Source: an uncultured Pseudoflavonifractor sp. (GTDB taxonomy: Bacteria; Bacillota; Clostridia; Oscillospirales; Oscillospiraceae). Taken from it: DNA of 64,000 bases. This document shows positions 5,399 to 28,880 of this stretch, in pieces. A model generated the notes under the pieces. That model made no database searches, was not told the origin of the DNA, and was given only the letters and a program-made list of their open reading frames with translations. Each line of letters opens with the position of its first letter. The first letter of the stretch is position 1. The position numbers and the translations under genes are program-made. The stretch is taken from contig NZ_CALXGI010000004.1 in assembly GCF_944387805.1 (NCBI RefSeq), positions 20,793 through 84,792 of the forward strand, read 5' to 3'.

Positions 5399-5662
5399 CG
5401 TCGGAGCAAGCTTTGTATCGCTTGCTCCGACTTATTTTATCAGTCAGAGCGCGCTCACGCCGCTGCTCCTCCTTTCCAAACCGCAACCGCTCACGCTGGG
5501 CTGCGGGCTTGGGGCCGCCGCTTCGCGGCGGTTTTGCTTTTTCCTTGGAAAATATCGATTTTAACCGTCTCTTCCAGAATAAAAGGCAACTGCGAAAGCA
5601 GTTGACTTTTATTCTGGGTTCCGCCGCCCAGAGGGCGGCTCCACCCTTCGGGATTTCAATGC
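5399..5662 (+). repeat. tRNA 3'-abutting multi-hairpin element, copy A
   Basis: Colinear homolog of 28609-28880 (reverse strand); shares identical 11-, 16-, 18- and 12-nt blocks and five hairpins. Confidence 0.85.
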
Positions 5663-5878
5663 TCAGGGCGGCAAAGCCGCCCTTCCGCCTGTTGGCAAAA
5701 ATCCAGGAACATGCGGGAAGGTATTGTATAATAAAACCATAAAAGGAGAAATGATATAGATTTTTCCAGCGCCTTGTGTTATACTTTTCGCAAAGAAACA
5801 GGGCGACGAACAAGAAATTGAGGAAAAAAAGATGGACGATAAAAATAAAATGGGTTCAGTTTTTAAGGAGGCGTAGGC

Positions 5879-6088
5879 ATGAAATATGTTATTAGGATCA
5901 TTCAGATTTCTACACTTTTAGGCGGAGCAGAATTTGTGGCATTACTACTTTTGGGGGATTTAACAGAAAGCGTAAAGCCAGTGGTATTAGGGGCAGTACT
6001 TGCCAGCCTGATTATATCTGGAGTACTTGGTATAATTGACCGGAAATTTGTAAGCACAAGAAACAAAGTTTCGGGCGCTTTATCTTGA
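5879..6088 (+). CDS. Small AT-rich two-TM hypothetical protein
   Basis: AAGGAGG RBS, two hydrophobic stretches, many A/T-ending codons unlike its neighbours. Confidence 0.6.
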   Translation: MKYVIRIIQISTLLGGAEFVALLLLGDLTESVKPVVLGAVLASLIISGVLGIIDRKFVSTRNKVSGALS

Positions 6089-6262
6089 CAGTATTGAAAG
6101 ATACTTTAGGGAACATCAGCCGGCACAATAATTACCGATTACCATTTATATTCTGTAATCTACTGTAAAAGTGAAATAATCTGTCAAAAGGGCAGTTGGA
6201 ATGTGTCCGGCTGCCCTTTTTCCATGCCTTCCATGCCGACAAGCAGAAAGGAGTAACCGGCT

Positions 6263-6313
6263 ATGACGAAACGGAAGGAGAAAACCCGCGAGGAATTGAC
6301 TTTCAAGGCTTGA
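6263..6313 (+). pseudogene. Truncated N-terminus of a DUF3847-like mobile-element gene (MTKRKEKTREELTFKA*)
   Basis: Strong RBS AGAAAGGAG; the KEKTREEL start resembles DUF3847 proteins of clostridial mobilisable elements (from memory); stops after 16 codons. Confidence 0.4.
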
Positions 6314-6421
6314 GGTGGGGCATCACATGCCCCAGATGAATATTCCTACATCGAATTTTGAATTTTAGTCTCCGGGAACACAAAAGGGAATTGGAAGTTA
6401 TACAAAAAGTGGAGAACTTCC

Positions 6422-6450
6422 TTGTAAAGCGCGGGATCCTGCGCTATAAT
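6422..6450 (+). promoter_or_regulatory. SigA promoter TTGTAA-N17-TATAAT for the sepF-like gene
   Basis: -35 at 6422-6427, -10 at 6445-6450. Confidence 0.7.
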
Positions 6451-6477
6451 GTAGAAAAACGCCAGGGAGGGAAAAGC

Positions 6478-6897
6478 ATGGGAATCTGGAACAAGGTGCG
6501 GGCGCGTATCCTGGGCGAGAGCTGGGAAGCGCCGGACGGTGCGGTGGAGAAGGATCCGCCGGAGAACAAGAAGCCGGGCCAGGGCTTTTCCCCGGCTGAC
6601 GACACGGGCGTAGGCAAGGTCATGGTGCTGACCCCCGGCAAGTATGTGGACGCGGGCAAGATTGCCGACTGCCTGCTGGACGGCTATGCGGTGGCGGTCA
6701 ATCTGGAGAGCGCCTCCCGGGAGGCGGCCCGGCGCATTGTGGACTTTCTCAGCGGCGCGGCCTACGGCCGGGACGGGCAGATGGTTCAGATTGGATACAG
6801 CGCCTATTTGCTCCTGCCCGCAGGAGCCAGGCTGCTGGACGGCGAGGAAGAAAAGGACCCGGACGGCTTTGACTTTGAGGACGCCCAGGGCTTTTGA
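6478..6897 (+). CDS. sepF: SepF family protein (stand-alone)
   Basis: KIADCLLDGYAVAVNLE...ARRIVDFLSGAAYG...YLLLP is the SepF core; ATG at 6478 after GGAGG. Confidence 0.8.
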   Translation: MGIWNKVRARILGESWEAPDGAVEKDPPENKKPGQGFSPADDTGVGKVMVLTPGKYVDAGKIADCLLDGYAVAVNLESASREAARRIVDFLSGAAYGRDGQMVQIGYSAYLLLPAGARLLDGEEEKDPDGFDFEDAQGF

Positions 6898-6909
6898 CAA
6901 CAGAGAACA

Positions 6910-6940
6910 GAAGAGGACCGGCCGCTGGCCGGTCCTCTTC
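6910..6940. terminator. Bidirectional hairpin terminator between convergent genes
   Basis: 14-bp perfect stem GAAGAGGACCGGCC/GGCCGGTCCTCTTC. Confidence 0.75.
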
Positions 6941-6954
6941 TTTCTGTATCGGCT

Positions 6955-8085
6955 TTATTCAAACGTCACCTGAGCGTCCAGGGGAACAATGTTCACATAG
7001 GTTTTGCCCCGGCCAAAGACGATGGGGTTGCCCTCCAGGTCGGTGTAGTAGAGCTGCCCGTCGGGCTCGGACTTGCTCCACACCAGGTCCGTGACCTTTC
7101 CGCCGCAGGCAAAGTACCCTGTGCCACCGCTGGACAGGTCCACGGAGACATGGCCGTAGGAGTCGCCGGTGTTGCGGCAGGCGGTGCGCAGCACCACCAC
7201 GTTGGTCACGCCCACCTGTTCGCCGGTGTTGCCGTCGATGTAGGGCGCGCCGTACTCGGAGACCAGGTAGCGCTTGGTCTCCGGGTCGTAGGTAAATACG
7301 CCGGTCTTGTAGTTGGAGAAGGGCACCGTGATGACGGGGGCGTCGGTGCCGCCGGCGGGGGTGCCGTCGTCGGCAAAGTCCATCTGGTAGCTCCAGCCCT
7401 CCTCGTGCTCCTGCCGGAAGGAGGCGGCGGAGAAGATCTCGTCAATCTTCGCGCCGGTGGTGATGACGCTGTGGACGTACCCGTTGGTGGACTTCCGGCC
7501 CGGGTCACGCCACATCAGATTGCCGCCCTCGCTGTTGCTCATGTAGGGGCCACGGACGGCGTCCAGGGAGGTGACGCCCCAGGCTCTGATTTTGCCGTAG
7601 GCGTCCTCCACACCGGCCACATCACTGCCGCCCGCGTGGATGAGGATGGCGTCATGGCCCAGGGCCAGCTCCAGGTAGTAGGTGCGGGTGGAGCGGACCG
7701 AGCCGATGACTCCCACATCCCGGGGGTTCTGGTACACGCTCATCATGCGGGTGATACCGCCCTCCTCCAGGCACTCGTAGATGATATCCGCCTCGGACTG
7801 GCCCTGCTGGGGCAGCGCCTGCTCCAGATTGTTGAGCATGATGGCCACCGGGCGCTTGTTCACCCACTCCTCCTCCATGGGCTCGCCGGTGAGGGGGTTG
7901 CGGGGACCGGTGTACTCGGGCTCCGCCGTCTCAGTGGGGGTGGGGGAGGGCTCGGGAGCCTCGGTTCTGGCGGGCAGGGTGGGGATGTCCGGGGGCGTGG
8001 GGGTGACCTCCGCCGTCTTGGAGCCGCAGGCGGAGAGCAGAAGCAGCAGGGACAGACAGAGAGGGAGCATCCGGCGCAGTCGCAT
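6955..8085 (-). CDS. DUF3048 (YerB-like) lipoprotein
   Basis: Lipobox LLLLSAC, Pro/Thr linker, RPVAIMLNN...ADIIYE..EGGITRM and GSVRSTR motifs. Confidence 0.85.
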   Translation of the reverse strand: MRLRRMLPLCLSLLLLLSACGSKTAEVTPTPPDIPTLPARTEAPEPSPTPTETAEPEYTGPRNPLTGEPMEEEWVNKRPVAIMLNNLEQALPQQGQSEADIIYECLEEGGITRMMSVYQNPRDVGVIGSVRSTRTYYLELALGHDAILIHAGGSDVAGVEDAYGKIRAWGVTSLDAVRGPYMSNSEGGNLMWRDPGRKSTNGYVHSVITTGAKIDEIFSAASFRQEHEEGWSYQMDFADDGTPAGGTDAPVITVPFSNYKTGVFTYDPETKRYLVSEYGAPYIDGNTGEQVGVTNVVVLRTACRNTGDSYGHVSVDLSSGGTGYFACGGKVTDLVWSKSEPDGQLYYTDLEGNPIVFGRGKTYVNIVPLDAQVTFE

Positions 8086-8164
8086 GGCATGGGCCTCCGT
8101 TCGTCAAGATTCTGTTTTTATAGTACCTGGCGGCGCTGCCGGTGTCAAGGGCGGAGCGGGTAGA

Positions 8165-8391
8165 AAAAGCCGCCCGGACGACGGGCGTCCGGGCGGCTGC
8201 AGGCTGTCGATAAACCCTTCGGCCAAAGGTTTCGGAGGGAAAGATAGTGTGAAAGAAAACCGTCAGGGTTGTCTTTCGCGTGCAATCAAACCACTTTTTC
8301 AAACTTTCAAAAGTTTGAAAAAGTGCAGCAGCCTGTCGAAAAGACGCTTCGACAGGCTGAAAGCCGCCCGGACAGAACTGTCCAGGCGGCT
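8165..8391. repeat. Hairpin-rich MITE-like insert between two copies of a terminator hairpin
   Basis: AGCCGCCCGGAC..GTCC(G/A)GGCGGCT at 8168-8198 and 8362-8391; internal 15-bp IR 8292-8306/8311-8325 and 12-bp IR 8329-8340/8348-8359. Confidence 0.55.
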
Positions 8392-8405
8392 GGAGAGACC
8401 GAAAA

Positions 8406-9602
8406 TCAGTCGGTGGTGTAGTTGTCGAAGTAGCCCTGGATATAGACAATGGGGGTGCCCTTGTCGCCGGAGCCGGAGGTCAGGTCACACAGGGAGCCGA
8501 TGAGGTCGGTAAGGCGGCGGGGGGTGGTGCCCTGGGAGACCATGTTGCCCACCAGGCTGCTGCCGTCCTTCTTGCGGATCTGCTCCTTGATGGCGTCGCG
8601 CAGAGCCTCGCCGGACAGGGCGGCGAAGTCGTTGTCGGCCAGATACTTCAGCTTCAGCTCATTGGGAGTGCCCTCCAGGCCGGCGGTGTAGGCGGGGGAG
8701 ACCACGGGGTCGGCCAGCTCCCAAATCTTGCCCACGGGGTCCTTGAAGGCGCCGTCGCCGTAGACCATGACCTCCACGTGCTTGCCGGTCTCGGCGAGCA
8801 TCTTGGCCTGGATGGCCTCCACCAGGTCCTGGCAGGGACGGGGGAAGAGCTTCACCTTGTCCTCGGTGGCCTTGTTGGAGCCCAGCAGGCCGTAGGTCTC
8901 GTTGCAGCCGCTGCCGTTGATGGGGGCGGTCATGATGTCGTCCAGAGTGAGGACCTTCTCAGCGCCGGCGGCCTGGAGCAGGCGCTTGGTGCGCTTGCGG
9001 GTGTGGATGTCGCAGGCCAGGACGGTCTTGGTGTAGTTCAGGACGGCACGGGGGTCGTTGGCGAAGATGATCTCCACCTCGGCGCCGCACTCCTGAATCA
9101 GGTTCTGGTAGTACTCCACGTAGTCCACGCCGGTGAAGGGGTGCTTCTCATAGCCGAAGAGCTCACGATAGCGCTCCAGGGTGAGCACGTCCTTGTAGGG
9201 GTCGACCCCCTTCTCGTCCACGGCGTCCAGGCTGATGAGGTGGTTGCCGACCTCGTCGGAGGGGTAGGAGAGCATCAGCACAATCTTGCTGCAGCCTTTG
9301 GCGATGCCCCGCAGGCAGATGGCGAAGCGGTTGCGGGACAGGATGGGAAAGATGACGCCCACGGTGCCGCCGCCCAGCTTGGCACGCACATCGGCGGCGA
9401 TGTCGTCCACGGTGGCATAGTTGCCCTGGCTGCGGGCCACAATGGCTTCGGTAATGGCAATGACATCCCGGTCGCGCACGGTGAAGCCGTCATCCCTGGC
9501 GGCCTCCAGCACAGAAGAGGTGACGATATCCACCAGGTTATCGCCGCTGCGGATAATAGGGGCGCGAATGCCGCGGGAAACAGTACCGACCATCCGGCTC
9601 AT
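8406..9602 (-). CDS. Coenzyme F420-0:L-glutamate ligase (CofE)-like protein, clostridial type
   Basis: N-terminal RGIRAPII..GD, DVIAITEAIVAR, C-terminal DLIGSLCDLTSGSGDKGTP. Confidence 0.75.
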   Translation of the reverse strand: MSRMVGTVSRGIRAPIIRSGDNLVDIVTSSVLEAARDDGFTVRDRDVIAITEAIVARSQGNYATVDDIAADVRAKLGGGTVGVIFPILSRNRFAICLRGIAKGCSKIVLMLSYPSDEVGNHLISLDAVDEKGVDPYKDVLTLERYRELFGYEKHPFTGVDYVEYYQNLIQECGAEVEIIFANDPRAVLNYTKTVLACDIHTRKRTKRLLQAAGAEKVLTLDDIMTAPINGSGCNETYGLLGSNKATEDKVKLFPRPCQDLVEAIQAKMLAETGKHVEVMVYGDGAFKDPVGKIWELADPVVSPAYTAGLEGTPNELKLKYLADNDFAALSGEALRDAIKEQIRKKDGSSLVGNMVSQGTTPRRLTDLIGSLCDLTSGSGDKGTPIVYIQGYFDNYTTD

Positions 9603-9791
9603 GAAAAAACACTCCTAAATTTTCAATTTTTTGTACAGAGCGGCTGAAAACCGCCCGGCAGTTTATTATACTACAAGCCGGGCCGGCCGCACAATAGAGA
9701 ATTCCCTCCCCAAAGGGAGAAAATGCGCCGGGCGGGAACAAGACAGCAAACCGCCCCGGCCAATGGACCGGGGCGGTTGGAACTGGAAAAC

Positions 9792-11066
9792 TCAGCGGCG
9801 GATAATCTCGTGGCGCTTGGGGCCGGTGGACACAGTCTTAATGGGGACGCCGATGTGCTTCTCAATGAAGTCCACATAGTCCCGGGCTTCCTTGGGCAGC
9901 TTGTCGTACTCGGTGACGCCCCGGATGTCGCACTTCCAGCCGGGCAGGGTCTCATAGACCGGCTTGGCCTTGTCCAGCAGGGGGGAGACGGGGAAGTCGG
10001 CGGTGACCTTGCCGTCAATCTCATAGCCGGTGCACACCTTGATCTCATCCAGGTAGCCCAGGCAGTCAATGGCGGTAAGGGCCACCTCTGTGGCGCCCTG
10101 GACCATGCAGCCGTAACGGGTGGCTACGGCGTCAAACCAGCCCACCCGGCGGGGGCGGCCGGTGGTGGCGCCGAACTCACCGGCGTCGCCGCCACGGCGG
10201 CGCAGCTCGTCAGCCTCATCGCCGAACAGCTCGGACACAAAGGCGCCCGCGCCCACGGCGGAGGAGTAGGCCTTGGTGACGCACACCACCTCGGTCAGGG
10301 CGGAGGGGGGCACCGCGGCGCCCACACAGCCGTAGCCGGCCAGGGTGTGGGAGGAGGTGGTGAAGGGGTAGATGCCCAGGTCGGGGTCCTTCATGGAGCC
10401 CAGCTGGCCCTCCAGCAGGATCTTCCTGCCCTCCTTCAGGGCCTGGTGGACAAAGGCCACCGCGTCGCCCACATAGGGGGCCACCATGTCCCGGTAGCCC
10501 ATGAGGGTGTTGAACAGCTCCTTGGGGTCCAGAGAGGGCTTGTGGTACAGATGCTCAAAGAGCACGTTCTTGATGACGCAGACATGCTCCAGCCGCTCCA
10601 TCAGCCGCTTCTCATCAAACAGGTCGCAGACCTGAATGCCAATCTTGGCATATTTGTCGGAGTAGAAGGGGGCGATACCCGACTTGGTGGAGCCGAAGGC
10701 GGCGCCGGCCAGGCGCTCCTCCTCATAGGTATCCTGGAGCACATGGTAGGGCATCAGCACTTGGGTGCGCTGGTCTACAATGATGTGGGGGGCGGGCACG
10801 CCGCCGTCGGTCAGGGTTTTCAGCTCATGGATGAATTTGGGCACGTCCAGGGCCACGCCGTTGCCGATGATGTTGGTGGTGTGGGGATAGAACACGCCCG
10901 AGGGGAGCTGATGCAGTGCGAACTTTCCATAATCACAGATAATGGTATGGCCTGCGTTGGCGCCGCCCTGAAAGCGGATGACAACGTCGGATTCCTCGGC
11001 CAGCAGGTCAGTGATCTTGCCCTTGCCCTCGTCGCCCCAGTTTGCGCCTACAATTGCTTTGACCAT
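9792..11066 (-). CDS. purA: Adenylosuccinate synthetase
   Basis: GANWGDEGKGK, RFQGGANAGHT, GATTGRPRRVGWFD. Confidence 0.98.
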   Translation of the reverse strand: MVKAIVGANWGDEGKGKITDLLAEESDVVIRFQGGANAGHTIICDYGKFALHQLPSGVFYPHTTNIIGNGVALDVPKFIHELKTLTDGGVPAPHIIVDQRTQVLMPYHVLQDTYEEERLAGAAFGSTKSGIAPFYSDKYAKIGIQVCDLFDEKRLMERLEHVCVIKNVLFEHLYHKPSLDPKELFNTLMGYRDMVAPYVGDAVAFVHQALKEGRKILLEGQLGSMKDPDLGIYPFTTSSHTLAGYGCVGAAVPPSALTEVVCVTKAYSSAVGAGAFVSELFGDEADELRRRGGDAGEFGATTGRPRRVGWFDAVATRYGCMVQGATEVALTAIDCLGYLDEIKVCTGYEIDGKVTADFPVSPLLDKAKPVYETLPGWKCDIRGVTEYDKLPKEARDYVDFIEKHIGVPIKTVSTGPKRHEIIRR

Positions 11067-11247
11067 AATCGTTCCTCCTGCCGCGGGGATTCGCGCGTTG
11101 GCCTTTTCCCACGGACGGACGATATTATATCCCCGGATTGTTCAGATTACAAGGGACAAAATGTAAAAAATCAGATTTGAGCGGAACATTTCTTCTCAGA
11201 CTGGAAGATGTCCGCCTCGGACGGAAGAGGATGGAAAAGGGTGTCCG

Positions 11248-11919
11248 TCACAGGAAAATCTCTGGGCTGGGGAGAAAAAATTCCGGAATGCCCTCGGCGG
11301 CGGGACACAGAGTGTGGAGGGGATAAAAAATGACCAGGGCGTCCTCTGTAAGATAGAAATTGTCCAGGGCAAAGTCCGCCTCCAACCGGCGGGGCCAGTC
11401 CTCATAGAACAGGAACTCCCCGGAGGCGGCCCGCCGGGCGCACTGGTCCGCCACCGCGGAGAGCACCTGCCGCCGCCAGCGAGTCCTGGGCGGAAAGAGG
11501 GAGGACAGAGAAACCGGGGTACCGGAGGACAGGTCCCAGGTCTCGCCCGACCGCACCAGCAGGGGCCGCGCGGTTCCGTGCTGTTCGGCGGCGTCGGCGT
11601 GCAGGCTGAGCACTCCGCCGCCGCTGCGGGTGACGGTAAAGTCCAGCGCCGCTGTCCAGGGGGTAAAGGGACGGGACTGCGCCCTGGCCTCCCGCAGGGC
11701 GGCGCAGGCCATGGCGTACAGCGGCCCCTCCCAGCGGGTTCGCCAGACCTGGGCCTGCCGGGCGAAACAGCGGTCAATGCGCCGCAGGCCCGGCGTGTCC
11801 CACTCCAGCGACGGCGCCCGGAGGGACAGCGCCAGCACCGGTTCCTCCTCCAGCGTCAGCACCTGCTCCTCCGGCGCAGCCTCTATTGTCACCGACTCCA
11901 CCCGGCGTTTTCCAAGCAT
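11248..11919 (-). CDS. DUF4163/DUF3298 (RsiV/PdaC-like) domain protein
   Basis: TWDL..G..VSL..LF and NFYLTEDALVIFYPLHTLCPAAEGIPEF C-terminal pattern. Confidence 0.65.
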   Translation of the reverse strand: MLGKRRVESVTIEAAPEEQVLTLEEEPVLALSLRAPSLEWDTPGLRRIDRCFARQAQVWRTRWEGPLYAMACAALREARAQSRPFTPWTAALDFTVTRSGGGVLSLHADAAEQHGTARPLLVRSGETWDLSSGTPVSLSSLFPPRTRWRRQVLSAVADQCARRAASGEFLFYEDWPRRLEADFALDNFYLTEDALVIFYPLHTLCPAAEGIPEFFLPSPEIFL

Positions 11920-12030
11920 AGACGCCCCTCCTTTTTCAAACCGTTCTGCCCCATCCTATGTATCAGAAGAAGATTTGACAGAAGTTTTTCCCTGTGTTAC
12001 GCTAAAGCAAAAGAGAAAGGAGAGTGCGGC

Positions 12031-12312
12031 ATGGTTCGGCTGTATATCCGGGTGTCCGGCCGGGTCCAGGGGGTAGGGTTCCGGTGGTTCACCTGCGCCG
12101 CAGCCGCCCGGCTGGATTTGACCGGCTGGGTACGCAACCGGGAGGACGGCGACGTGGAGATGGAGGTCCAGGGGGACGAGGGGCCGGTAGAGGAGTTTAT
12201 TCAGGCCGTGTCCCAGGGGCCCAGGTATGCCCGGGTGGACGGCGTAGAGCGCTATGCCCTGACGCCTGAGGAAGGAGAACGGTCCTTCCACGAGCGGGGC
12301 AGCCTGTGGTGA
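12031..12312 (+). CDS. acyP: Acylphosphatase
   Basis: VSGRVQGVGFR...GWVRNREDGDVE. Confidence 0.95.
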   Translation: MVRLYIRVSGRVQGVGFRWFTCAAAARLDLTGWVRNREDGDVEMEVQGDEGPVEEFIQAVSQGPRYARVDGVERYALTPEEGERSFHERGSLW

Positions 12313-12432
12313 AATTTTCCCCGCAAAAGGGACAAATTCTGTTTACTTTCATGCTTCAGTGATTTAAAATATAAAATGATAAATCATGAAAGCGAACCCT
12401 TACCAAATATACCAAAAGGAGGCTGTCAGCCT

Positions 12433-12744
12433 ATGACCAAGGGTGACAAGAAGGAACACAGCGATATTCTCTATGAGACCATTCTCACCCTCAAGGACCT
12501 GGACGAGTGCAAGAAATTTTTCTCCGATCTGTGCACTGTGGCCGAGCTGCGCGCCATGGAGCAGCGCTTTGAGGTAGCCATTCTCCTGTCCAACGGCATG
12601 ATCTACAACGACATTCTGGAGCGGACCGGGGCGTCCAGCGCCACAATCAGCCGGGTGAACCGCTCCCTCAACTACGGCGCGGACGGATACACCACTGTGC
12701 TGCCCCGGGTGAAGGAGAAGCTGAAGGCCGATGGAAAGCTATGA
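12433..12744 (+). CDS. YerC/YecD (TrpR-like) protein
   Basis: FFSDLCTVAELRAMEQRFEVA...TGASSATISRVNRSL.YG. Confidence 0.9.
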   Translation: MTKGDKKEHSDILYETILTLKDLDECKKFFSDLCTVAELRAMEQRFEVAILLSNGMIYNDILERTGASSATISRVNRSLNYGADGYTTVLPRVKEKLKADGKL

Positions 12745-13480
12745 GTTCCTGGCCGGGTGCTACGATGAGCTGACCACCGACGTGCGGTACGGCCGGTGGG
12801 CGGACTACATTGAGAAGCACTTTGCCCGCAGCGCCCTGCCCATCCATACGGTGCTGGACCTGGCCTGCGGCACCGGCAGCCTGACGGCGGAACTCATGGG
12901 CCGGGGCTACGAGATGATCGGCGTGGACCGCTCGGCGGAGATGCTGTCCGTGGCGGCGGAGAAGTGCCGGGACCTGGAGGGCGAGCCGCCCATCTTCCTG
13001 TGCCAGAGCATGGAGAAGCTGGACCTGTACGGCACCATTGACGCCTGCGTCTGCTGCCTGGACAGCGTCAACTATGTCACCAGCCCCAGGACCCTTCGGA
13101 AGGCATTCCAGCGGGTCCACCTGTTCCTCATGCCCGGCGGGCTGTTCCTCTTTGACATCAACACGCCGGACAAGCTTCGGGGCCTGGACGGGGGCATGTT
13201 TATCGACGAGACTGACGACGCATACTGCGTCTGGCGGGCGGAGTACTCCCCCCGGCGGCGCATCTGCACCTACGGCATGGATATCTTCCGCCTGGAGGCC
13301 GACGGCCGCTGGAGCCGGGGTGAGGAGGTCCATGAGGAGTACGCCTACGAGCCTGACGAGCTGGAGGAATACCTGCGGGAAGCCGGCTTCACCCGCATCC
13401 GCCGCCATGGCTGCCTGAAAATGCGCGCCCCCGTGCCGGGAGAGGAGCGCATCTTCTTCACTGCTGTGAAGAAGGGCTGA
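12731..13480 (+). CDS. Class I SAM-dependent methyltransferase
   Basis: VLDLACGTG motif I, GVDRS, DSVNY, FLFDINT. Confidence 0.9.
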   Translation: MESYEFLAGCYDELTTDVRYGRWADYIEKHFARSALPIHTVLDLACGTGSLTAELMGRGYEMIGVDRSAEMLSVAAEKCRDLEGEPPIFLCQSMEKLDLYGTIDACVCCLDSVNYVTSPRTLRKAFQRVHLFLMPGGLFLFDINTPDKLRGLDGGMFIDETDDAYCVWRAEYSPRRRICTYGMDIFRLEADGRWSRGEEVHEEYAYEPDELEEYLREAGFTRIRRHGCLKMRAPVPGEERIFFTAVKKG

Positions 13481-13614
13481 ACACAGCAGGCCGCAAGCGT
13501 GAAATTTGTCCGCTGAGTGGGGACAAATAATGCGCCCGGCGGGCTGCATCTTATTCGCCATTGGAAAAGGCGCGCGCACCTTTTCCACGGAAGAGAAAGG
13601 AAACAAACGCATTT

Positions 13615-14490: not shown

Positions 14491-14520
14491 CAGAAGAAGC
14501 GCTCCGCACAGATATGGGAT

Positions 14521-14558
14521 AAAGAACGCCCCCTGCCTACCGGCAGGGGGCGTTCTTT
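14521..14558 (+). terminator. Terminator after hslO
   Basis: 17-bp perfect stem with a 4-nt loop. Confidence 0.75.
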
Positions 14559-14683
14559 ATCAAAATAAAGCAGGACAAAACTCCCAATTCCTATAATAAT
14601 TAGGAAAATTAACATGGGATAATGCGGCAAAAAAAGATAGCCTGTAATATAATAAGCACCATAATAAGGAAGGGGGGAGAGGG

Positions 14684-15259: not shown

Positions 15260-15265
15260 GAAAGC

Positions 15266-15306
15266 AGAGAGCGCCCGGAGCCGTGTAACGGCTCCGGGCG
15301 CTCTCT
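15266..15306. terminator. Bidirectional terminator
   Basis: 19-bp perfect stem between convergent genes. Confidence 0.75.
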
Positions 15307-19370: not shown

Positions 19371-19512
19371 AAGAGCGCTGCCGGGCCAACAGCGTGCAAT
19401 AATACCAACGAACACAAGGAAGTGCCTTGACCTGTCCCCGCAGTCTGTGCTAGTGTGAACGTAAAGTCCTGCCCGGTGCAGGCTGGAAAAACGGACGATG
19501 GGGAGGATTGTC

Positions 19513-21120: not shown

Positions 21121-21154
21121 TCTGTCCCAAAGCGGAGAATAACAAAAATTACCT

Positions 21155-21202
21155 GAAAAGAACCGCCTCCTTTGGATCAAACTAGGTCCAAAGGGGGCGG
21201 TT
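21155..21202 (+). promoter_or_regulatory. Terminator-like hairpin overlapping a predicted sigG promoter (GAAAA-N18-CAAACTA) and the ypeB RBS
   Basis: Stem 21161-21176/21187-21202; the -10-like element 21178-21184 lies in the loop. Confidence 0.4.
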
Positions 21203-21205
21203 TTT

Positions 21206-22582
21206 ATGACCAGGGAGTTTTTCCGCAGCCGGCGGGCAAAGACGCTGATAATCAGTTTTACGGCGGCAGCCTTTGCGGTGACTGGCGGCGCGGCGCTCAG
21301 AAGCCACGCCAGAGCAGAGACCTACCGGAACATTGTCAACAACACATACCAGCACGCCTTTGCCGAGCTGACCACTGCAGTGGCGGAGATGGACGCGGCG
21401 CTGCAAAAGACCGCCTATGTCACGTCCCAGCCCCTGCTGGCGCAGCTGTGCACAGAGCTGTTCGGCCGGGCCATGTCGGCCCAGATGGCCGTAGGCGAGC
21501 TGCCCTACGGCAATGTGGAGCTGGCCCAGACCGCGTCCTTTGCCGCCAAGGTGGGGGACTATGCCGCGGCCCTGTCCAAGAGCACGGCGTCGGGAGGCGG
21601 GACCACAGAGGAGGAGAAGGAAAACCTGCGGGCCCTGGCCGCCGCCTCGGGGCAGCTATCCCAGATGCTCCAGGACCTGCAGGCCGGCATCCACGGCGGG
21701 ACCATTACCCTGGAGGACCTGGAGCAGGCACAGGCCCGGCTGGCCCAGTCCCAGGAGACCACGGAGGACACGGCGGGGAGTACCTTTCAAAACATGGAGG
21801 CCGACTTCCCTGAGGTGCCCACCCTTATCTACGACGGTCCTTTCTCCGAGCACCTCTCCACCCAGCAGCAGCCCAAGGCCCTGGAAGGGATGGAGGAGGT
21901 GACCCAGGAGGAGGCCCAGGCCGCGGCAGCGGAGTTCATGGGCCTGAAGCCGGAGATTTTCACGTCAGTAGCCACCGGCGAGGGGGCCATCCCCTACTGG
22001 AGCTTCTCCGCCGTGGTGGACGGAGGCGAGGTGTATATCGAGGTGTCCCGCCAGGGCGGAAAGGTGACCGAGCTGATGAACGCCCGGCCGGTGGGAGAGG
22101 CCGCCCTCACGGCGGAGGAGGGGGTGGAGGCAGCCCGGGCATTCCTGGCCGCACAGGGTTACGGGGATATGGAGCCCAGCTACTATATCAGCCAGGACAA
22201 TATTCTCACCGTCAATTTTGCCGCCCGGCAGGGGGATGTGCTGTGCTATCCAGACCTTGTCAAAGTGGCGGTGGCGCTGGACAGCGGCAGCATTGTGGGA
22301 TTTGAGGCCGAGGGCTACCTGATGAACCATACCCAGAGGGGATTGGAGACGCCGGCCGTCTCCGAGGAAGCGGCCCGGGCGGTGCTGGACCCGGCGCTGG
22401 ACTGCCTGTCCCATCAGCTGGCCATTATCCCCACCAGCGGCAAATACGAGGTGCTCTGCCATGAGTTTAAGTGCCGGACAGAGGACGGGCGGCACTATAT
22501 TGTCTATGTAAACGCCCAGACCGGAAACGAGGAAAAGATTCTGCTTCTCATTGAAGATGAGAGCGGAACGCTGACCATATAG
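21206..22582 (+). CDS. ypeB: Germination protein YpeB (PepSY domains)
   Basis: N-terminal TM, NTYQHAF, PTLIYDGPFSEH, YPDLVKVAVALD.G.IVGFEAEGY, YVNAQTGNEE. Confidence 0.92.
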   Translation: MTREFFRSRRAKTLIISFTAAAFAVTGGAALRSHARAETYRNIVNNTYQHAFAELTTAVAEMDAALQKTAYVTSQPLLAQLCTELFGRAMSAQMAVGELPYGNVELAQTASFAAKVGDYAAALSKSTASGGGTTEEEKENLRALAAASGQLSQMLQDLQAGIHGGTITLEDLEQAQARLAQSQETTEDTAGSTFQNMEADFPEVPTLIYDGPFSEHLSTQQQPKALEGMEEVTQEEAQAAAAEFMGLKPEIFTSVATGEGAIPYWSFSAVVDGGEVYIEVSRQGGKVTELMNARPVGEAALTAEEGVEAARAFLAAQGYGDMEPSYYISQDNILTVNFAARQGDVLCYPDLVKVAVALDSGSIVGFEAEGYLMNHTQRGLETPAVSEEAARAVLDPALDCLSHQLAIIPTSGKYEVLCHEFKCRTEDGRHYIVYVNAQTGNEEKILLLIEDESGTLTI

Positions 22583-22928
22583 CGTACCGCGCCTGACGCC
22601 CATCCGGAGACCTTCTTCTCTCCGGATGGGCGCGCATTTGCCTCCGTACGCCGGAGCTCGTGATGAGATATACCAATTTTTGATAAAAACCGAGAAAAAC
22701 GGAATAAAGATAAAAAATTGAGAACATGATTTCAGAGAAACGCGGAAAGTCACTTGAAGGAAATACGGAAGCATGGTAAAATAAAAATCAATAATTCGGA
22801 AAAAGAATATTTTTCAGACGCAAGAATCTGCATCTCGCTGCGGAGGGGAGAAGCAGATCGGGGACGGCGTCTGTCGGCATGGTCGGGAAAGAGGCCAGGA
22901 TTACGGCGGAAGAGCTTGAGAGGTTGCA

Positions 22929-25900
22929 ATGAGCATGGAATTGGACAGGCAGTATGTGGTGGAGACATACCGCAGCATCTTGGACTTTTTGAGCGAGAGC
23001 TCCAACGACTACTTCTATTTCTTTGACTTTAAGACAGACCGCCTCTATTTTTCCAGGAATATCTGCAAGAATTATGACCTGATGGAGGATGGAAGGGAGT
23101 ATATCTCCGGCCGGGAGTGGCTTGAGAAGGTATACACCTGGGATCTGCCCGTTATGCAGGAGGCATACAGACGGCTGTACAGCGGTGAGGATCGGGTGCA
23201 CCGGCTGGAGTACCGCATTATCAACCGCAGGGGAGACGTGGTGTGGATTAGCAGCCGCGGCAAGAGCCAGATAGATTCCAACGGGAAGCCCGTCTGGGCC
23301 TTTGGCTGCATCTCTGAGGACGCCATGGACGGCAAGGCGGACAGCTTCACGGGCGCGCTGAATATGCACCGGCTCAGGCAGGAGTGCGGACAGCTGCTGG
23401 CGGAGGAGCAGGACGGTTTTCTGCTGCTGGTTGGGGTGGACGACCTGAAGTCCATCAATCTGAAAATGGGGCGGGAGCATGGCAACAAGGTGCTGCAGCA
23501 TGTGGCCGCGGCGCTGAAGCGGGCGGTGGACGGGGCGCGGCAGATCTACCGGACCAATGGGGACTGCTTTGCGGTCAATCTGCCGAAGGCGGATGCCGGG
23601 CAGGCAGAAGCCGTATTCTCCTGCGCCCAGAAGCTGCTGGCCGGGGAATGTACTCTGTCCGGCGGCTGCGTGCCCTACCGGGAGTACATGGTGCCCGACG
23701 CCGAGACCCTCTATCAGTATGCTGAAAACACCCTGGACCACGCCAAGGCCCGGGGGAAAAACCGGCTGCTGTTTTTCTCTGCCGACGACTATGAGCGGGA
23801 GATTGCCACCCTGGAGCTGAAGGAAGAACTGCTCAACAGTGTCCGGGCCGGGTTCCAGGGCTTCTCCCTGGTCTACCAGCCTCAGGTGTTCTCCGCGACT
23901 TATGGAATTTATGGCGCGGAGGTACTGCTGCGGTATACCTCTCCCAGGCGGGGCAGCGTGCCCCCGTCGGAGTTTGTGCCCATTCTGGAGCAGAGCAAGC
24001 TGATCTGCCCTGTGGGCATCTGGGTTCTGGACACCGCTCTGAAGCAGTGCAGGGTGTGGCGCAGACAGGCGCCTGATTTCCACATGAGCGTCAACGTGTC
24101 CTACACCCAGCTGTGTGAGGAGAATATCGTCCAGAAGGTGTTGGACGCGGTGAACCGGAGCGGCCTGCCAGGCAGCGCGGTGACGCTGGAGATTACCGAG
24201 AGCATGCAGCTGCTGGACTATCCGCATATCAACGACCTGTTTCTCCAGTGGAAGAAGCACGGCATAGAGATTTCCGTGGACGATTTCGGCACCGGCTACT
24301 CCAGCCTGGGGCGGCTGAAGGAACTGGAAATTGACGAGATCAAGATTGACCGGTGCTTTGTCAACAACATTCAGCACAGCGCCTACAATTATCGCCTGCT
24401 GGGCAACATGCTGGAACTGGCCGACAGCTGCCAGATTCGGGTGTGCTGCGAGGGCGTGGAGACGGAAGAGGAGCTGGCGGCGCTGGAGGAGCTCCATCCC
24501 GCGCTGCTCCAGGGCTTTCTGTTCTCGCGGCCCTGTACCGCCCGGGAGCTGGAGGAGCGATACTTCCGGACAGAGAGCCCGGACTACATGGAACGGGTGG
24601 AAAGGGAGCGGAACTACCTGAGCCAGATCCATGCGGCGGAGATTGACGCCGCGGTAGACTGGCCGGAGGATGAGATGGCCGCCGCCATTATGGAGGCGGA
24701 AAATGATATCTTCTATGTCAGCGACATGGATACCTATGAGCTCTACTATGTCAGTCCGGCGGGGCGGCGGCTCATGGGACTGCGGGACTACCGGGGCCGA
24801 AAGTGCTATAAGGTCCTCCAGGGCCTGGATGAGCCCTGCTCCTTCTGCACCAACGCCAAGCTGAAGCAGGACAAATTTTATATCTGGGACAGGGAGAACG
24901 AGTACTGCGGGCGGCACTTTCTGCTCAAGGACAAGATGATCACCCACCGGGGGAAACGGCTGCGGATGGAGGTGGCGCTGGATATTACCAAGCATGAGAT
25001 TGTCAGCCGCAGCACGCAGGAGCGGCTGATTTTCGCCCAGAAGATTGCCGGATACACCAGGACCCTTGCGGAGAATGCCGACTACGGAGAGGCGATCAGC
25101 CGGGTTCTGGCCTCAGTGGGTGATTTCTACCAGGCGGACCGGGCCTATCTCTTTGAGCCCAGCCCGCGGCGGGAGGGATATTGGGACAACACCTTTGAGT
25201 GGTGCGCGCCCAACGTGGAGGCCCAGGCACAGAATCTGCAGGAAGTGCCGCCGCAGGCCGTGGCGCGGTGGATGGAGCTCTTTGACCGGGGGCGTTCCGT
25301 GGTCATTCTCAATCTGGATGCCCTGCGCCGGGAGAACCCGGAGGAATGGCAGATTCTGGACGCACAGAGGATTGCACGGCTGATTGCGGTGCCGCTTCGG
25401 GACGGCGGCCGTACCATCGGGTTTATCGGCGTGGACAATCCCCGCTATGCGATCCAGGATGACACACAGGTTTGGGTGCTGTCCAGCTTTCTGGTCAACC
25501 GCATCCGGCAGGAGCGGAATGAGAAGCGGTACCGGGAGCTGCTTCGGGCCAACTACCATGACGTCTTTGAGATGCTGGGCCTGGGCCTGTGGATTATCCG
25601 TCTTGACCGGGAGAAGGGCCGCCATGAAATGGTGGCCAGCGACGCGATGCTCCACATTCTGGGCGTCTCCGGCGTGCCCAGCGCCGAGGAGTGCTACCAG
25701 TTCTGGTACGGCAGGGTCAACGACGGCTACCGGCGCTATGTGGACGAGTCAATGCAGACGATGATCCGATCGAAGCGGCCCGTTCAGATGGAGTACAGCT
25801 GGCGGCACCCCCGGCGGGGGAATGTGCTGGTGCGCTGCACCGGCATGCGCTTCCAGGACGAGAACGGCATGCTCTGCCTGAAGGGGTATCACCGCATTGT

Positions 25901-27191
25901 TAACGACATGGAGCGGCCCAATCTGGTGCCGGAGGCCTGCGTGCGGGACATCTTCGAGTACAACGCGGCGGAAAAGACCATGTTCTTCCACACGGAGCGC
26001 ACGCTGCTGCTGGGAGAGGAGGCCCGCGAGTCTGACTTCCCCCAGTGCTGGATTGACAGTGAAATTGTCCATCCCCATTTTGTAGCGCAATTCCGCAGCG
26101 CCTTCCCGGGGCTGCACGGAGGAGCGGGGAAGGCGCGCCGGGAGCTGCTGCTCAAATCCAAGAGCGGGACATATGAGTGGTTCAAGCTGACAACCCAGCG
26201 GCTGGACCGGGAGGAGCAGGGACAGGAGGCGGTCATCGCCGTGCTGGAGCCCATCGGCGCGGACCGGGGCATGGAGCTGGAGTACATGCGGATGCGCAAA
26301 CTCTACCACACGCTGCTGTCCGAGGCCATCGCCTATGCGGAGGTGGACCTGGAGAGCGGACAGATTAAGTCCGTGGGCGGGCTGTGGCAGGCCTACAAAC
26401 AGGACTACCGCCAGAGCTCCCGGCACTTCATTGAGGTACTGGAACAGCAGCTGTCCCATATAATCTCTGACGAGGAGCTGGAGCGGCTCAGACGATACCG
26501 GGACCCGGCTGCGTGGAAAGAGATGCTGGCGCGGGGGGAGACCAGCAGCCGGTTCTGCTACCGCCGGCCGGTGGGAGACGCCCTCCACTGGGTGGAGCTG
26601 ACTACCTACCTGTTCCGGGAGGATATCACCCACAATATGTACACCCTTATTTATCTGAAGGATATCAACGCGGAGAAGGAGCGGGAGTTTGCCCAGGCCA
26701 AGGCGGCCGACCGGGACCCGCTGACCGGCCTGTACAACCGCACCGCTTTCGAGCGGGAGGTGGTCCGGTGCGTGAGCGAGTGCAATCGGTCCCCCTGCGG
26801 CGTGCTGCTGATATTAGACATTGACAACTTCAAGCAGATCAACGATAAGATGGGGCATCTGGAGGGGGACAAGGCGCTCCAGACCGTGGCCCGGGCGCTG
26901 ACCGCCACCTTCCGGCACGAGGATATTGTGGGGCGTCTGGGCGGCGACGAGTTCCTGGTCTTTATCAGGGGAGCCCTCCGGAGGGAGCAGCTGGAACGGC
27001 GTCTGGAGAGCCTGATGGCCAGCCTGGAGCAGACGGCGGGCCCCATACTGACAGGCAGTGTGGGCCTGACCTATGTCTCCTGCCTGGACTTCGACTATGA
27101 CGGCTATCTGAAACGGGCCGACCTGGCGCTGTACAAGAGCAAGCGGCAGGGAAAGAACCGGTTCCAATTCTATGAGGATGCAGACAGCTGA
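22929..27191 (+). CDS. Large c-di-GMP enzyme: PAS-GGDEF(degenerate)-EAL-PAS-GAF-PAS-like-GGDEF
   Basis: First GGDEF site reads RTNGDCF; EAL region AEVLLR and DDFGTGYSSL; GAF segment LIAVPL..IGFIGVDN; terminal RHED-N5-GGDEF. Confidence 0.9.
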   Translation: MSMELDRQYVVETYRSILDFLSESSNDYFYFFDFKTDRLYFSRNICKNYDLMEDGREYISGREWLEKVYTWDLPVMQEAYRRLYSGEDRVHRLEYRIINRRGDVVWISSRGKSQIDSNGKPVWAFGCISEDAMDGKADSFTGALNMHRLRQECGQLLAEEQDGFLLLVGVDDLKSINLKMGREHGNKVLQHVAAALKRAVDGARQIYRTNGDCFAVNLPKADAGQAEAVFSCAQKLLAGECTLSGGCVPYREYMVPDAETLYQYAENTLDHAKARGKNRLLFFSADDYEREIATLELKEELLNSVRAGFQGFSLVYQPQVFSATYGIYGAEVLLRYTSPRRGSVPPSEFVPILEQSKLICPVGIWVLDTALKQCRVWRRQAPDFHMSVNVSYTQLCEENIVQKVLDAVNRSGLPGSAVTLEITESMQLLDYPHINDLFLQWKKHGIEISVDDFGTGYSSLGRLKELEIDEIKIDRCFVNNIQHSAYNYRLLGNMLELADSCQIRVCCEGVETEEELAALEELHPALLQGFLFSRPCTARELEERYFRTESPDYMERVERERNYLSQIHAAEIDAAVDWPEDEMAAAIMEAENDIFYVSDMDTYELYYVSPAGRRLMGLRDYRGRKCYKVLQGLDEPCSFCTNAKLKQDKFYIWDRENEYCGRHFLLKDKMITHRGKRLRMEVALDITKHEIVSRSTQERLIFAQKIAGYTRTLAENADYGEAISRVLASVGDFYQADRAYLFEPSPRREGYWDNTFEWCAPNVEAQAQNLQEVPPQAVARWMELFDRGRSVVILNLDALRRENPEEWQILDAQRIARLIAVPLRDGGRTIGFIGVDNPRYAIQDDTQVWVLSSFLVNRIRQERNEKRYRELLRANYHDVFEMLGLGLWIIRLDREKGRHEMVASDAMLHILGVSGVPSAEECYQFWYGRVNDGYRRYVDESMQTMIRSKRPVQMEYSWRHPRRGNVLVRCTGMRFQDENGMLCLKGYHRIVNDMERPNLVPEACVRDIFEYNAAEKTMFFHTERTLLLGEEARESDFPQCWIDSEIVHPHFVAQFRSAFPGLHGGAGKARRELLLKSKSGTYEWFKLTTQRLDREEQGQEAVIAVLEPIGADRGMELEYMRMRKLYHTLLSEAIAYAEVDLESGQIKSVGGLWQAYKQDYRQSSRHFIEVLEQQLSHIISDEELERLRRYRDPAAWKEMLARGETSSRFCYRRPVGDALHWVELTTYLFREDITHNMYTLIYLKDINAEKEREFAQAKAADRDPLTGLYNRTAFEREVVRCVSECNRSPCGVLLILDIDNFKQINDKMGHLEGDKALQTVARALTATFRHEDIVGRLGGDEFLVFIRGALRREQLERRLESLMASLEQTAGPILTGSVGLTYVSCLDFDYDGYLKRADLALYKSKRQGKNRFQFYEDADS

Positions 27192-27454
27192 AACGAAAAA
27201 TACGGCAGCCCGCTGCGGCGCACAGTATGCGCGGTGCAGCGGGCTGCCGCTTTTTCCAGGGGCTCTGAACCGGACAAAGAGAGTCCGGCGGGCCGTCAGG
27301 ACTCACAGAGCGTATCCGCCCGAATGTGAAGATAACCTTAACAAATGCTAAGAGAGCCTATATGGATTTTACACAATTCAGGGCTATAATGTGGGAGCAC
27401 TGGCCCCCAGGCAGGGGGACGACAAAATGAATTAGTTTGAAAGGAAAGTCTGAT

Positions 27455-27790
27455 ATGAAACGAATTGCTACCATGATTCTGGGCGCCGCCCTGGTGCTCT
27501 CCCTGGCCTCCTGCTCCAAGCTGGGTCTCCCCGGCAGGCAGTCCGCCTCCCCCGCGCCCAGCGAGAGCGGGACAGTGGAGACCAAGACGGCCACGGTCTC
27601 AGGCGTTATCAACCGGATGGACAATTTTTTGGTGCTGCTGCTGGACAACGACAGCTACCAGATTTTTGACTTTGCCAAGGGGCTGGATACCAGCGGCTTT
27701 GCCGAGGGCGACCGGGTGGAGGTGACCTACACCGGCGTTCTGGGGGACGAAAACGCCACCCCTGTAGCCACCCAGATGGTGAAGCAGTAA
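27455..27790 (+). CDS. Small hypothetical lipoprotein
   Basis: Lipobox LSLASC; GAAAGGAAAG RBS; OB-fold-like GDRVEVTY segment. Confidence 0.7.
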   Translation: MKRIATMILGAALVLSLASCSKLGLPGRQSASPAPSESGTVETKTATVSGVINRMDNFLVLLLDNDSYQIFDFAKGLDTSGFAEGDRVEVTYTGVLGDENATPVATQMVKQ

Positions 27791-28004
27791 GACGGGAAAA
27801 ACAAACAGGGCCGGAGGACACAGCGGCGTGCCTCCGGCCCTGCTTTGTTCCGGGATGCTGAAGTGTTTATGGGGGCAGGTCGTGCCGCACGCGCCGGTGA
27901 AACTGCGCGCTCGGCGGCGGAGAAATCCATGCGCCGAAAGCCTGAGCCATGGTTCCCGGGGCTCTTTCGGCGCGTCTGCCTGTGACGTGGGAAGAGCGGC
28001 CGGT

Positions 28005-28571
28005 TTATTTTGTCACGCGAAAGGTCAGTCCATCGTATTTCTGTCCGCCGACCTCACGGGAACCCACATTGCGGTTGCACTCTACAAAGCCGAGCTTTGC
28101 CGCGCAGCGAAGCATACGGACATTGCCTGACCAAGTTTGCGTATAAAGCTCCTCCGCGCCGTTTTCAAAGAAGTAGTCCATAAAGGCGCGGAGAGCGTTT
28201 GTTCCAATGCCGTTTCCCCAGAGGTCGGACTCGCAAATAGAAATGCCGACCGCGCGGTGGACGGTCTGACCGTCTTTGACCTTGCCAAGGCTGTTGTAGT
28301 GCTCGTCTATGAGATAGGAGCTTACCCAGCCAATGTGCCGGCCGTTCCACTCGATTTCAAACTTCCAGCGGCGGGCGTTTTCGGGAAGGCCCTTCACGGA
28401 CTCATAATACTTGCGCCAAGCGGCGCGCTCCTTCTCCGCGTCCGATTCGAGAGGCTCCCACGGAGCGTCCGTATGGGACCACTCGGTTTCAGTGGTGAAC
28501 CAACGTACATAGTCCTCAATGTCGGAAGCGATCGGATCCCGAAGAATAATATTTTTGTATTGGATCTGCAC
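28005..28571 (-). CDS. GNAT N-acetyltransferase (RimJ/RimL-like), atypical codon usage
   Basis: GISICESDLWGNGIGTNAL...TWSGNVRMLRCAAKLGF; GTG start after GGAGG. Confidence 0.88.
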   Translation of the reverse strand: MQIQYKNIILRDPIASDIEDYVRWFTTETEWSHTDAPWEPLESDAEKERAAWRKYYESVKGLPENARRWKFEIEWNGRHIGWVSSYLIDEHYNSLGKVKDGQTVHRAVGISICESDLWGNGIGTNALRAFMDYFFENGAEELYTQTWSGNVRMLRCAAKLGFVECNRNVGSREVGGQKYDGLTFRVTK

Positions 28572-28608
28572 AGAGCTGCACCTCCCAGGAAGAATTTGCT
28601 GCTGCCAG

Positions 28609-28880
28609 GCATTGCAATGCCGGAGGGGGGAGCCGCCCTCCGGGCGGCAGAACCCAAAACAAAAGGCGACAGCAAAAGCAGCTGCCTTTTGTTTTGGAAG
28701 GGGCGGTTAAAATCGATATTTCTGAATGGAGAAAAATGCCGCCTGCAAGGCGGCCTACCAACTGCGAGCCCAGCGCAGCGGGTCGCAGTTGGAAAGGAGG
28801 AGCAAGGGAGCGGGCGGATGACGTCTTTTTTTGCCTCGGGCATAAAAAGACATCGGAGCAAAGCGGACTTTGCTCCGACG
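28609..28880 (-). repeat. tRNA 3'-abutting multi-hairpin element, copy B
   Basis: Begins right after the CCA of tRNA-Leu; homologous to 5399-5662. Confidence 0.85.

Follow-up and report, generated by a model that had tools for sequence, protein, structure and literature searches.

Why do two unrelated tRNA genes on opposite strands carry the same sequence directly behind their CCA ends? The question is raised by a 64,000-nt stretch of DNA from an uncultured Pseudoflavonifractor sp. (contig NZ_CALXGI010000004.1, positions 20,793 to 84,792; here called the window), in which tRNA-Gly(CCC) (5325..5398, plus strand) and tRNA-Leu(CAA) (28881..28967, minus strand), both located by ARAGORN and Rfam and both with an encoded CCA, anchor two such sequences. 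In each case the CCA is followed immediately by CGTCGGAGCAA and the next ∼265–290 nt, read on both strands, are colinear, so that tRNA prediction and alignment bear out what a preliminary description of the window had reported from the letters alone. Its identical blocks were found again at the same positions, the 16-mer TGCTCCTCCTTTCCAA and the 18-mer AAATATCGATTTTAACCG occurring exactly twice each in the 64 kb against an expectation of 0.00–0.03 from shuffled sequence, and the compensatory changes that it listed in the hairpins are present. Averaged over the whole alignment of the two loci, including both tRNAs and the sequence beyond, column identity was 79%. A protein-coding reading was unsupported, the frames being broken by indels between the two window copies. 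The answer developed below is that both sequences are arrays of small cassettes, members of an apparently undescribed family of gut Oscillospiraceae.

The preliminary description had seen one element of ∼270 bp at each tRNA, ending at 5662 and 28609. The strong shared structure and the similarity stood; the single element and its ends did not. Behind each tRNA, two gene-less cassettes stand head to tail in a short array, a complete unit of one type (B) followed by a 3′-truncated unit of another (A), and the A fragments reach 5689 and 28586. Behind tRNA-Gly, with all features on the plus strand, the B unit (subtype B2, 178 nt, 5399..5576) runs from the first base after CCA to the end of a conserved core, and nhmmer matched positions 2–186 of the B model (modB) at 5400–5576 (E = 4e-44). 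It opens with hairpin 1, a 12-bp stem with the T-run TTATTTTATC (5400..5441), which resembles an intrinsic terminator and probably serves as the terminator of tRNA-Gly. The conserved 16-mer (5464–5479) stands just ahead of hairpin 2 (CCAAACCGCAACC...GGGCTGCGGGCTTGG, 5476..5512), which covaries among 17 B units (alignment columns 90–126), and is followed by hairpin 3 (GCCGCCGCTTCGCGGCGG) with its T-run (5514..5545), a second terminator-like site, and by the CCA-terminated 27-nt core AAATATCGATTTTAACCGTCTCTTCCA (5550..5576), the conserved right end of the unit. The A fragment that comes next (5577..5689; profile match 5578–5689, model positions 2–112 of 235) holds a long hairpin that takes in the preceding CCA (5574–5617) and further hairpins at 5623–5639 and 5666–5682; it is truncated on its 3′ side at ∼5689, exactly where metagenome contigs with a full A unit diverge.

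The second array has the same construction on the minus strand. Its complete B unit (subtype B1, 186 nt, 28695..28880) matched model positions 2–186 at 28879–28695 (E = 3e-47), with hairpin 1 and its T-run at 28881–28840, hairpin 3 and its T-run at 28754–28728, and the core at 28721–28695. The A fragment (28586..28694, model positions 1–108), with its long hairpin at 28697–28654, stops just short of the ribosome-binding site and start of a GNAT gene (28571–28005). In both arrays the distal, truncated A unit is probably an older, decayed member. Promoter-like sites lie upstream of both anchoring genes (5277–5305 for tRNA-Gly; 29040–29012, minus strand, for tRNA-Leu).

An exact scan for AAATATCGATTTTAACCG across one genome per species returned at least 117 stretches, where a rough estimate put the chance expectation below 20, and ∼86 among the matches listed came from Oscillospiraceae and related Clostridia. 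In these Clostridia the motif lengthens to a 27-nt core, AAATATCGATTTTAACCGtCCcTTCCA, with a hairpin directly after it. The ∼90 Oscillospiraceae loci taken for comparison (labelled L001 and so on) contain two distantly related families of complete units, A of ∼235 nt and B of 173–190 nt with subtypes B1–B4, gene-less complete units spanning 173–242 nt overall. All share one layout: a left hairpin with a T-run, in the shape of an intrinsic terminator, then a body of more covarying hairpins, then the core. The type of the left hairpin tracks the body downstream of it and not the sequence upstream in 39 of 39 complete units (B1, 10/10; B2, 5/5; B3, 6/6; B4, 2/2; A, 16/16), and the unit is therefore hairpin plus body plus core. 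Nearly all unit starts are preceded by CA, nearly all cores end in CA, and the distance from the TCGA box of the core to its terminal CCA is that between the T-loop TCRA box and the CCA of tRNA genes. Head-to-tail arrays with one to three complete units are common, and their last member is nearly always 3′-truncated. The B1 copies had a mean pairwise identity of 89% (10 loci).

At the gathering score, Rfam 15 recognized the tRNA family alone in the window and in seven loci with complete units; permissive scans added sub-threshold chance matches, e.g., SpF25 at 27–41 bits against a gathering score of 48. Full-text literature searches found no description of such a family, and a phage database gave no match to a C-type end plus core. 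The core was also considered as the internal T-arm of a decayed tRNA and rejected, since the 5′ side of the T-stem is unpaired on hand checking and the TCGA spacing and CCA are the sole overlap. At least two further right-end types do without the 27-nt core and are nonetheless followed directly by unit left ends, one of the form ..ATCAACACATGACA and one ..CCTATCATTACACTCC(GAC)(CA) (L025 4640–4691, L122, L142 5150–5175 and L076 2360–2390; L049 6290–6380, L118 and L137 2480–2529), and cassettes with other end types are therefore chained in the same arrays.

Where the units sit was counted across the fetched loci. A unit begins within 6 nt downstream of 34 of the 59 tRNA genes, always on the same strand and always behind the last tRNA gene of the operon; CCA is encoded in all 59. 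Fifteen tRNA species are used, namely Leu (five anticodons), Thr(CGT), Gly(CCC, GCC), Ser(GCT, CGA), Arg(CCT, CCG, ACG), and Pro(GGG, CGG), and the 3′ end of transfer-messenger RNA (tmRNA) is used beside them. For ∼105 unit starts, obtained by regular expression, reclassified by hand and cleared of reverse-strand artefacts of the palindromic hairpins, the preceding sequence was a tRNA-like CCA (tRNA or tmRNA) in ∼47, the core of an earlier unit in ∼46, another sequence ending in CA in ∼11, and something else in 1–2. The tRNA genes ahead of the units are undamaged and keep 7/7 pairs in the acceptor stem. Subtype B1 was found in different species behind Leu, Gly, Arg, and Pro tRNAs and also behind cores, and orthologous tsaD-tRNA-Thr loci hold different units (L059 vs. 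L120 vs. L140). The orthologous tRNA-Pro(CGG) loci L049 and L118 also differ in content, without forming a clean empty-vs.-filled pair. Units of one subtype behind different tRNAs and differing orthologous loci imply that the units moved repeatedly; judged by sequence comparison, this shows turnover and mobility over evolutionary time. The preliminary description had inferred that the element is non-autonomous and either targets tRNA 3′ ends or is maintained there. That inference held against everything it had named beforehand as speaking against it: the counts at tRNA genes and unit starts show a strong enrichment of related copies behind tRNAs, the similarity goes beyond generic terminator motifs to a conserved 27-nt core and covarying hairpins, and neither Rfam nor the literature offered an already described family.

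What moves the units is suggested by gene-bearing relatives of 1.1–5 kb, which have the layout of the gene-less units and are closed by the same core. The compact form begins directly after CCA with the hairpin AGYTGGRAGCTACATTTTAGCC...GGCTGAAATGTAGCT-TTTT, followed by an operator-like region of inverted repeats, a serine recombinase of ∼311–332 aa, variable cargo of 0–4 kb, and the core. At least 17 of the ∼90 loci have a serine recombinase gene a few kb ahead of the core and in the same orientation. The check for co-occurring recombinase genes proposed in the preliminary description yielded a candidate partner in other genomes. The protein has Resolvase and Recombinase domains, an RVS catalytic-serine motif, and homology to PDB 3g13 and SprA; the nearest named families are CcrB and XisF, CcrB being the top NCBIfam model at a score far below the equivalog cut-off. 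Searching metagenome contigs for exact matches to the operator added 19 loci. Left ends of recombinase units were found behind tRNA-Pro(CGG), Leu(GAG), Leu(TAG), and Thr(CGT), behind three further tRNA-like 3′ ends, and behind one C-type and one A-type core; three other sites comprised two sequences ending in CA and one short tRNA-Pro-like sequence ending in CCA. From the CCA junction to the recombinase stop (∼1.06 kb) these units are homologous at 78–95% identity, the cargo differs, and the core is present at the right end wherever the contig extends that far.

Compared with PADLOC, the cargo includes candidate defense families (AAA_13/PrrC-like, AAA_14, and metallophosphoesterase). An AAA_13 cargo protein of ∼800 aa matches PDC-S06 and, more weakly, the anticodon nuclease PrrC; such AAA_13 or defense-like cargo lies at L123 1238–4760 (Pusillibacter faecalis pMM59_01), L035, and L061, and other cargo matches PDC-S01 and PDC-S10. 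A different gene-bearing unit, in L091, follows a partial tRNA whose 3′ end reads CCA and consists of an A-type hairpin, a promoter-like site (recognized by eye), a gene for an 865-aa protein, an A-type right end, and the core. The protein carries ten DUF4379 treble-clef zinc-finger repeats and has PHROG matches to HNH and homing endonucleases. It is also weakly Vsr/DUF559-like, and its last codons overlap the A-type right end (L091 443–3040; L001). Given A-type ends on both sides of this gene, the A units seem to be related to a gene-bearing unit and to lack its gene.

Larger regions linked to integrative and conjugative elements (ICEs), with full-length large serine recombinases, are core-terminated as well. 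Their core variant, TCCTTTGCA, is identical in different host species. What comes right after it varies and nearly always forms a hairpin, from which it follows that the core is part of the element and not of the target. The one match in a plasmid database, P. faecalis pMM59_01, led to an ICE region with its own left end inside a disrupted recombinase gene, and this shed no light on the att sites. On the same plasmid, L124 4630–6090 (minus strand) holds a gene for a TndX/TnpX-like large serine recombinase that is absent from the plasmid gene table and, as read from the sequence, appears truncated where a conjugative element begins.

Position, modularity, turnover, shared ends, and recombinase-bearing members are observed features of the family, to which a mechanism has to be fitted. 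With moderate confidence, we read the window copies as non-autonomous cassettes, placed by the site-specific action of a serine recombinase at the CA that follows the acceptor end. A recombinase with a catalytic serine, a feature shared with integrative and mobilizable elements (IMEs) and staphylococcal cassettes, is present in the gene-bearing relatives and was not found by tblastn in the window copies, which would therefore be non-autonomous. We infer that the enzyme, supplied in trans to the A and B units, would integrate and excise them with a 2-bp crossover at or beside the terminal CA of the acceptor arm. As for the core, it would be an element-borne half-site that mimics the end of a tRNA gene, its TCGA box lying at T-loop distance from CCA, and by virtue of this resemblance one protein could recognize many tRNA genes and resident cores alike. 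Insertion at the terminal CA of a resident core would produce arrays, in which new units would enter next to the tRNA and older ones would be pushed distally and decay. As each unit would bring its own terminators for the tRNA transcript and insulate the sequence downstream, insertion would in this model leave tRNA expression and downstream genes undisturbed. A crossover within the ATCGAT of the core or in the tRNA T-loop was ruled out, the upstream tRNAs being intact and the core constant past ATCGAT.

Several observations weigh against insertion by a trans-acting serine recombinase. The assembled contigs, which break at repeats, showed neither an excised circle nor a clean empty site nor presence/absence differences between strains; for the same reason, four chicken-gut DNA runs gave no informative joints for presence/absence variants. 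The preliminary description had called the window free of recombinases, and for serine recombinases this stood: tblastn with those of the related loci found no homolog in the 64 kb, tyrosine recombinases not being screened. The left ends of A, B, and recombinase units are alike in structure and share little sequence, and the right halves of the targets are variable hairpins. Serine recombinases normally read both half-sites, and such variable right halves would be unusual. The ∼320-aa enzyme is without the zinc ribbon and coiled coil, the domains that large serine integrases use for site choice, and because these are missing it is unproven that the enzyme is active. Some cores have TA in place of CA at their end. 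Truncation of A recurs near model positions 108–116, for which random decay is not obviously the cause. Lastly, the strong covariation of the hairpins shows that their structure is under selection, something unnecessary in a site that serves recombination alone.

A bolder form of the recombinase reading treats tRNA genes as an integron-like platform, and we put it forward tentatively, as possible and short of probable. Here a truncated, large-serine-type recombinase of ∼320 aa would read the T-loop box and CCA of nearly every tRNA or tmRNA gene that stands alone, as well as the 27-nt core that mimics them, and would stack cassettes behind the CCA. Its cassettes would comprise defense genes, homing-endonuclease-like genes, the recombinase gene itself, and non-coding terminator cassettes of 0.2 kb.

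The selection on structure is the starting point of the strongest rival, that the units are functional structured RNAs or multi-terminator trailers: host cis-elements or small RNAs, acting as read-through insulators or 3′-trailer processing signals or with the C-rich core as a seed, retained because of this role, and spread from one tRNA locus to another by gene conversion or homologous recombination alone. The two window stretches fold with z = −7.3 and −7.5 relative to shuffled sequence, and on the strand of the tRNA there are three terminator-like hairpins in either stretch. For 13 A units RNAalifold predicted six hairpins, with compensatory double changes in 16 of 46 pairs; for 17 B units such changes affect 18 of 35 predicted pairs, in a mixed-subtype alignment that is poor at hairpins 1 and 3. 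Many loops, read from the sequences, are GNRA- or UUCG-like on the tRNA strand, and B-like sequence is present in contigs of gut metatranscriptomes. These contigs are weak evidence of transcription, as they attest presence and not transcript ends and could derive from DNA carry-over or read-through. Departures of the G-U and A-C kinds are about equal in A units, which means that the strand of a structured RNA cannot be assigned, and Rfam offers no match. The same core, moreover, closes protein-coding units of 1–5 kb with their own recombinase, and one subtype stands behind at least six different tRNAs and behind other units, for which an insertion process is needed anyway. We therefore regard the structured-RNA explanation as unlikely, and the co-transcribed non-coding RNA that the preliminary description had listed among its candidates is now the weaker reading. 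The 3′ arm of hairpin 1 and its T-run can alternatively pair with an A-run plus GACGTC ∼12 nt downstream (GACGTCTTTTT...AAAAAGACGTC; 28840–28818, minus strand, in the window, with counterparts at the corresponding positions of all B subtypes), a pairing conserved in B1, B2, and B3 with a different sequence in each.

Retro-copying would account for the precision of the junctions by another route. A reverse transcriptase would start within a unit RNA, run to its 5′ end and switch to the 3′ CCA of another unit RNA, tRNA or tmRNA, after which the cDNA would recombine with the tRNA gene; the variants of the Neurospora Mauriceville retroplasmid are the model for template switching to CCA ends. Junctions exactly at the CCA of 15 tRNA species and tmRNA, units that themselves end in CCA, and a 3′-truncated distal unit in nearly every array, as internal priming predicts, all fit. 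Asking whether CCA had been added was uninformative with 59 of 59 tRNA genes encoding it. On the other side, gene-and-promoter units of 1–5 kb use the same junctions, a better fit to DNA recombination, no reverse transcriptase recurred in the neighboring open reading frame (ORF) clusters checked, which are annotated in part, and a terminator hairpin is an odd 5′ end for a transcript. We consider this origin quite improbable.

Single-strand DNA transposition by HUH-type enzymes, whether of palindrome-associated transposable elements (PATEs) derived from IS200/IS605 or of IS91 or Helitron-like systems, would insert the units 3′ of a motif ending in CA and leave truncated last units by premature termination. 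The hairpin exactly at the left end, a right end that resembles the target, the truncated last units, and insertion 3′ of a short motif without visible target duplication or terminal inverted repeats are what such transposition would give. Against it, the hairpins differ freely in sequence from copy to copy, with compensatory changes, and TnpA-type enzymes bind hairpins that are conserved; nor does a two-letter target by itself account for the preference for tRNA ends. No Y1, Y2 or Rep-like gene recurred near units, where serine recombinases did. PATEs have conserved subterminal hairpins at both ends and a Y1 TnpA in the genome; in the units a hairpin is present on the left, and the ORFs that recur nearby included no TnpA that was noticed (whole genomes were not searched). 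This explanation is highly improbable.

That the units are leftover att sites of tyrosine-integrase islands or prophages is largely refuted and has next to nothing in its favor beyond tRNA genes being classic targets, as for the L004/L038 prophage in tRNA-Gly(CCC): what such elements leave behind, in L004 for instance, is the 3′ part of the tRNA itself as a direct repeat, and the units carry none, begin after CCA, and occur as an identical type behind unrelated tRNAs. A tRNA island with its own tyrosine integrase was rejected likewise, with the same core behind 15 tRNAs, intact upstream tRNAs, and no tRNA-specific direct repeat. The prophage itself (L004 3700–4030 and L038, Clostridiales bacterium CCNA10) has a 403-aa tyrosine integrase and a duplicated tRNA 3′ half, and the host sequence behind it is a hybrid unit with an A-type hairpin, a B-type body, and the core.

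Does recombinase-mediated insertion at tRNA ends correspond to any known system? The nearest analogues, namely staphylococcal cassette chromosomes (SCC/psi-SCC), accretion of cis-mobilizable elements (CIMEs), integron arrays, and tycheposons, each differ in at least one tested defining feature. SCC and psi-SCC of staphylococci use Ccr large serine recombinases and a single site in rlmH (orfX), and are kilobases long. The units resemble them as serine-recombinase cassettes at one defined point of a housekeeping gene's 3′ end, with tandem piling, variable cargo, and recombinase-less members like the ccr-less ones of SCC. Unlike SCC, they use many tRNA and tmRNA genes, join exactly after CCA, and include gene-less members of 175–240 bp, and their ∼320-aa recombinase is without a zinc ribbon or coiled coil. 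The tycheposons of Prochlorococcus have tyrosine or large serine recombinases, use a handful of tRNA and tmRNA genes, are kilobases long, and are flanked by tRNA 3′ repeats. They too bring cargo to tRNA and tmRNA genes, form tandem islands, and leave degraded remnants, but the units lack a tRNA-derived repeat, have a core common to all tRNAs used, and include gene-less mini-units.

Integron cassettes are promoter-less modules moved by the tyrosine recombinase IntI at attC sites (RYYYAAC...GTTRRRY). As in integron arrays, the units stand head-to-tail at one primary site, their closing, putative recombination site is more conserved in structure than in sequence, and their cargo varies; here, however, the primary site is a tRNA CCA end, many units are non-coding, and the recombinase gene lies inside a cassette. 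An integron cassette or attC proper was rejected, the boxes being missing by eye from core and hairpins and the recurrent neighboring enzymes being serine recombinases. Repetitive extragenic palindromes (REPs), bacterial interspersed mosaic elements (BIMEs), and Correia elements are scattered between genes, Correia elements with terminal inverted repeats and a TA duplication, REPs linked to REP-associated tyrosine transposases (RAYTs). All are short, abundant, structured intergenic repeats and possible terminators or insulators, like the units; we know of none placed precisely at tRNA CCA ends. Two further candidates were discarded: a miniature inverted-repeat transposable element (MITE), as the left hairpin bears no relation to the right core and nothing but CA is duplicated at the flanks, and a group IIC intron (GUGYG 5′ end, domains V/VI, >0.6 kb), as the gene-less units are 173–242 nt long and begin with a hairpin, and the Rfam scans returned no intron family.

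Among the IMEs of Firmicutes, tRNA 3′ ends are used by tyrosine recombinases, whereas serine-recombinase IMEs enter genes internally or with low specificity and, as in Tn4451, are flanked by 2-bp repeats (PMC5704250). CIMEs keep att sites without recombination genes and accrete in tandem at one att site (PMC5704250). As small integrative elements with tandem accretion and recombinase-less members, the units are similar to both; a family of non-coding, 0.2-kb IME members is not described in that review (PMC5704250).

Elsewhere in the window, an isolated A-like fragment (nhmmer, model positions 73–157) lies on the plus strand at 52631..52717 with no adjoining tRNA. It sits between 46-nt duplicates (52547–52592 and 52737–52782) that are 89% identical, the duplicate copying the 3′ end of a minus-strand aconitase-family gene (52735–54984) 190 nt beyond the gene. 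From this arrangement, 52547–52782 looks like the scar of an element that may have integrated into the 3′ end of the aconitase-family gene and replaced it. A 592-nt inverted repeat (721–1312 and 42921–43512, 70% identity) and several direct repeats across 38–47 kb, which resemble Walker-type ATPase motifs, are probably paralogous ATPase genes of ATP-binding cassette (ABC) transporters.

Metagenome assemblies break at the units behind tRNA genes, and the gene-less ones are of interest as portable multi-hairpin terminators. If insertion by a serine recombinase is the correct explanation, a compact enzyme with a short, definable site would be a possible engineering tool for the poorly tractable gut Clostridia. 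The arrays would be a hotspot for the exchange of candidate defense genes. They would also represent a new use of tRNA genes by mobile DNA, in which the insertion point is the very end of the gene, the CCA common to many tRNA species, and in which a serine instead of a tyrosine recombinase acts at tRNA ends and yields modular, integron-like arrays. For a major family of gut bacteria, such cassettes would account for much of the “intergenic” DNA that is conserved downstream of tRNA genes.

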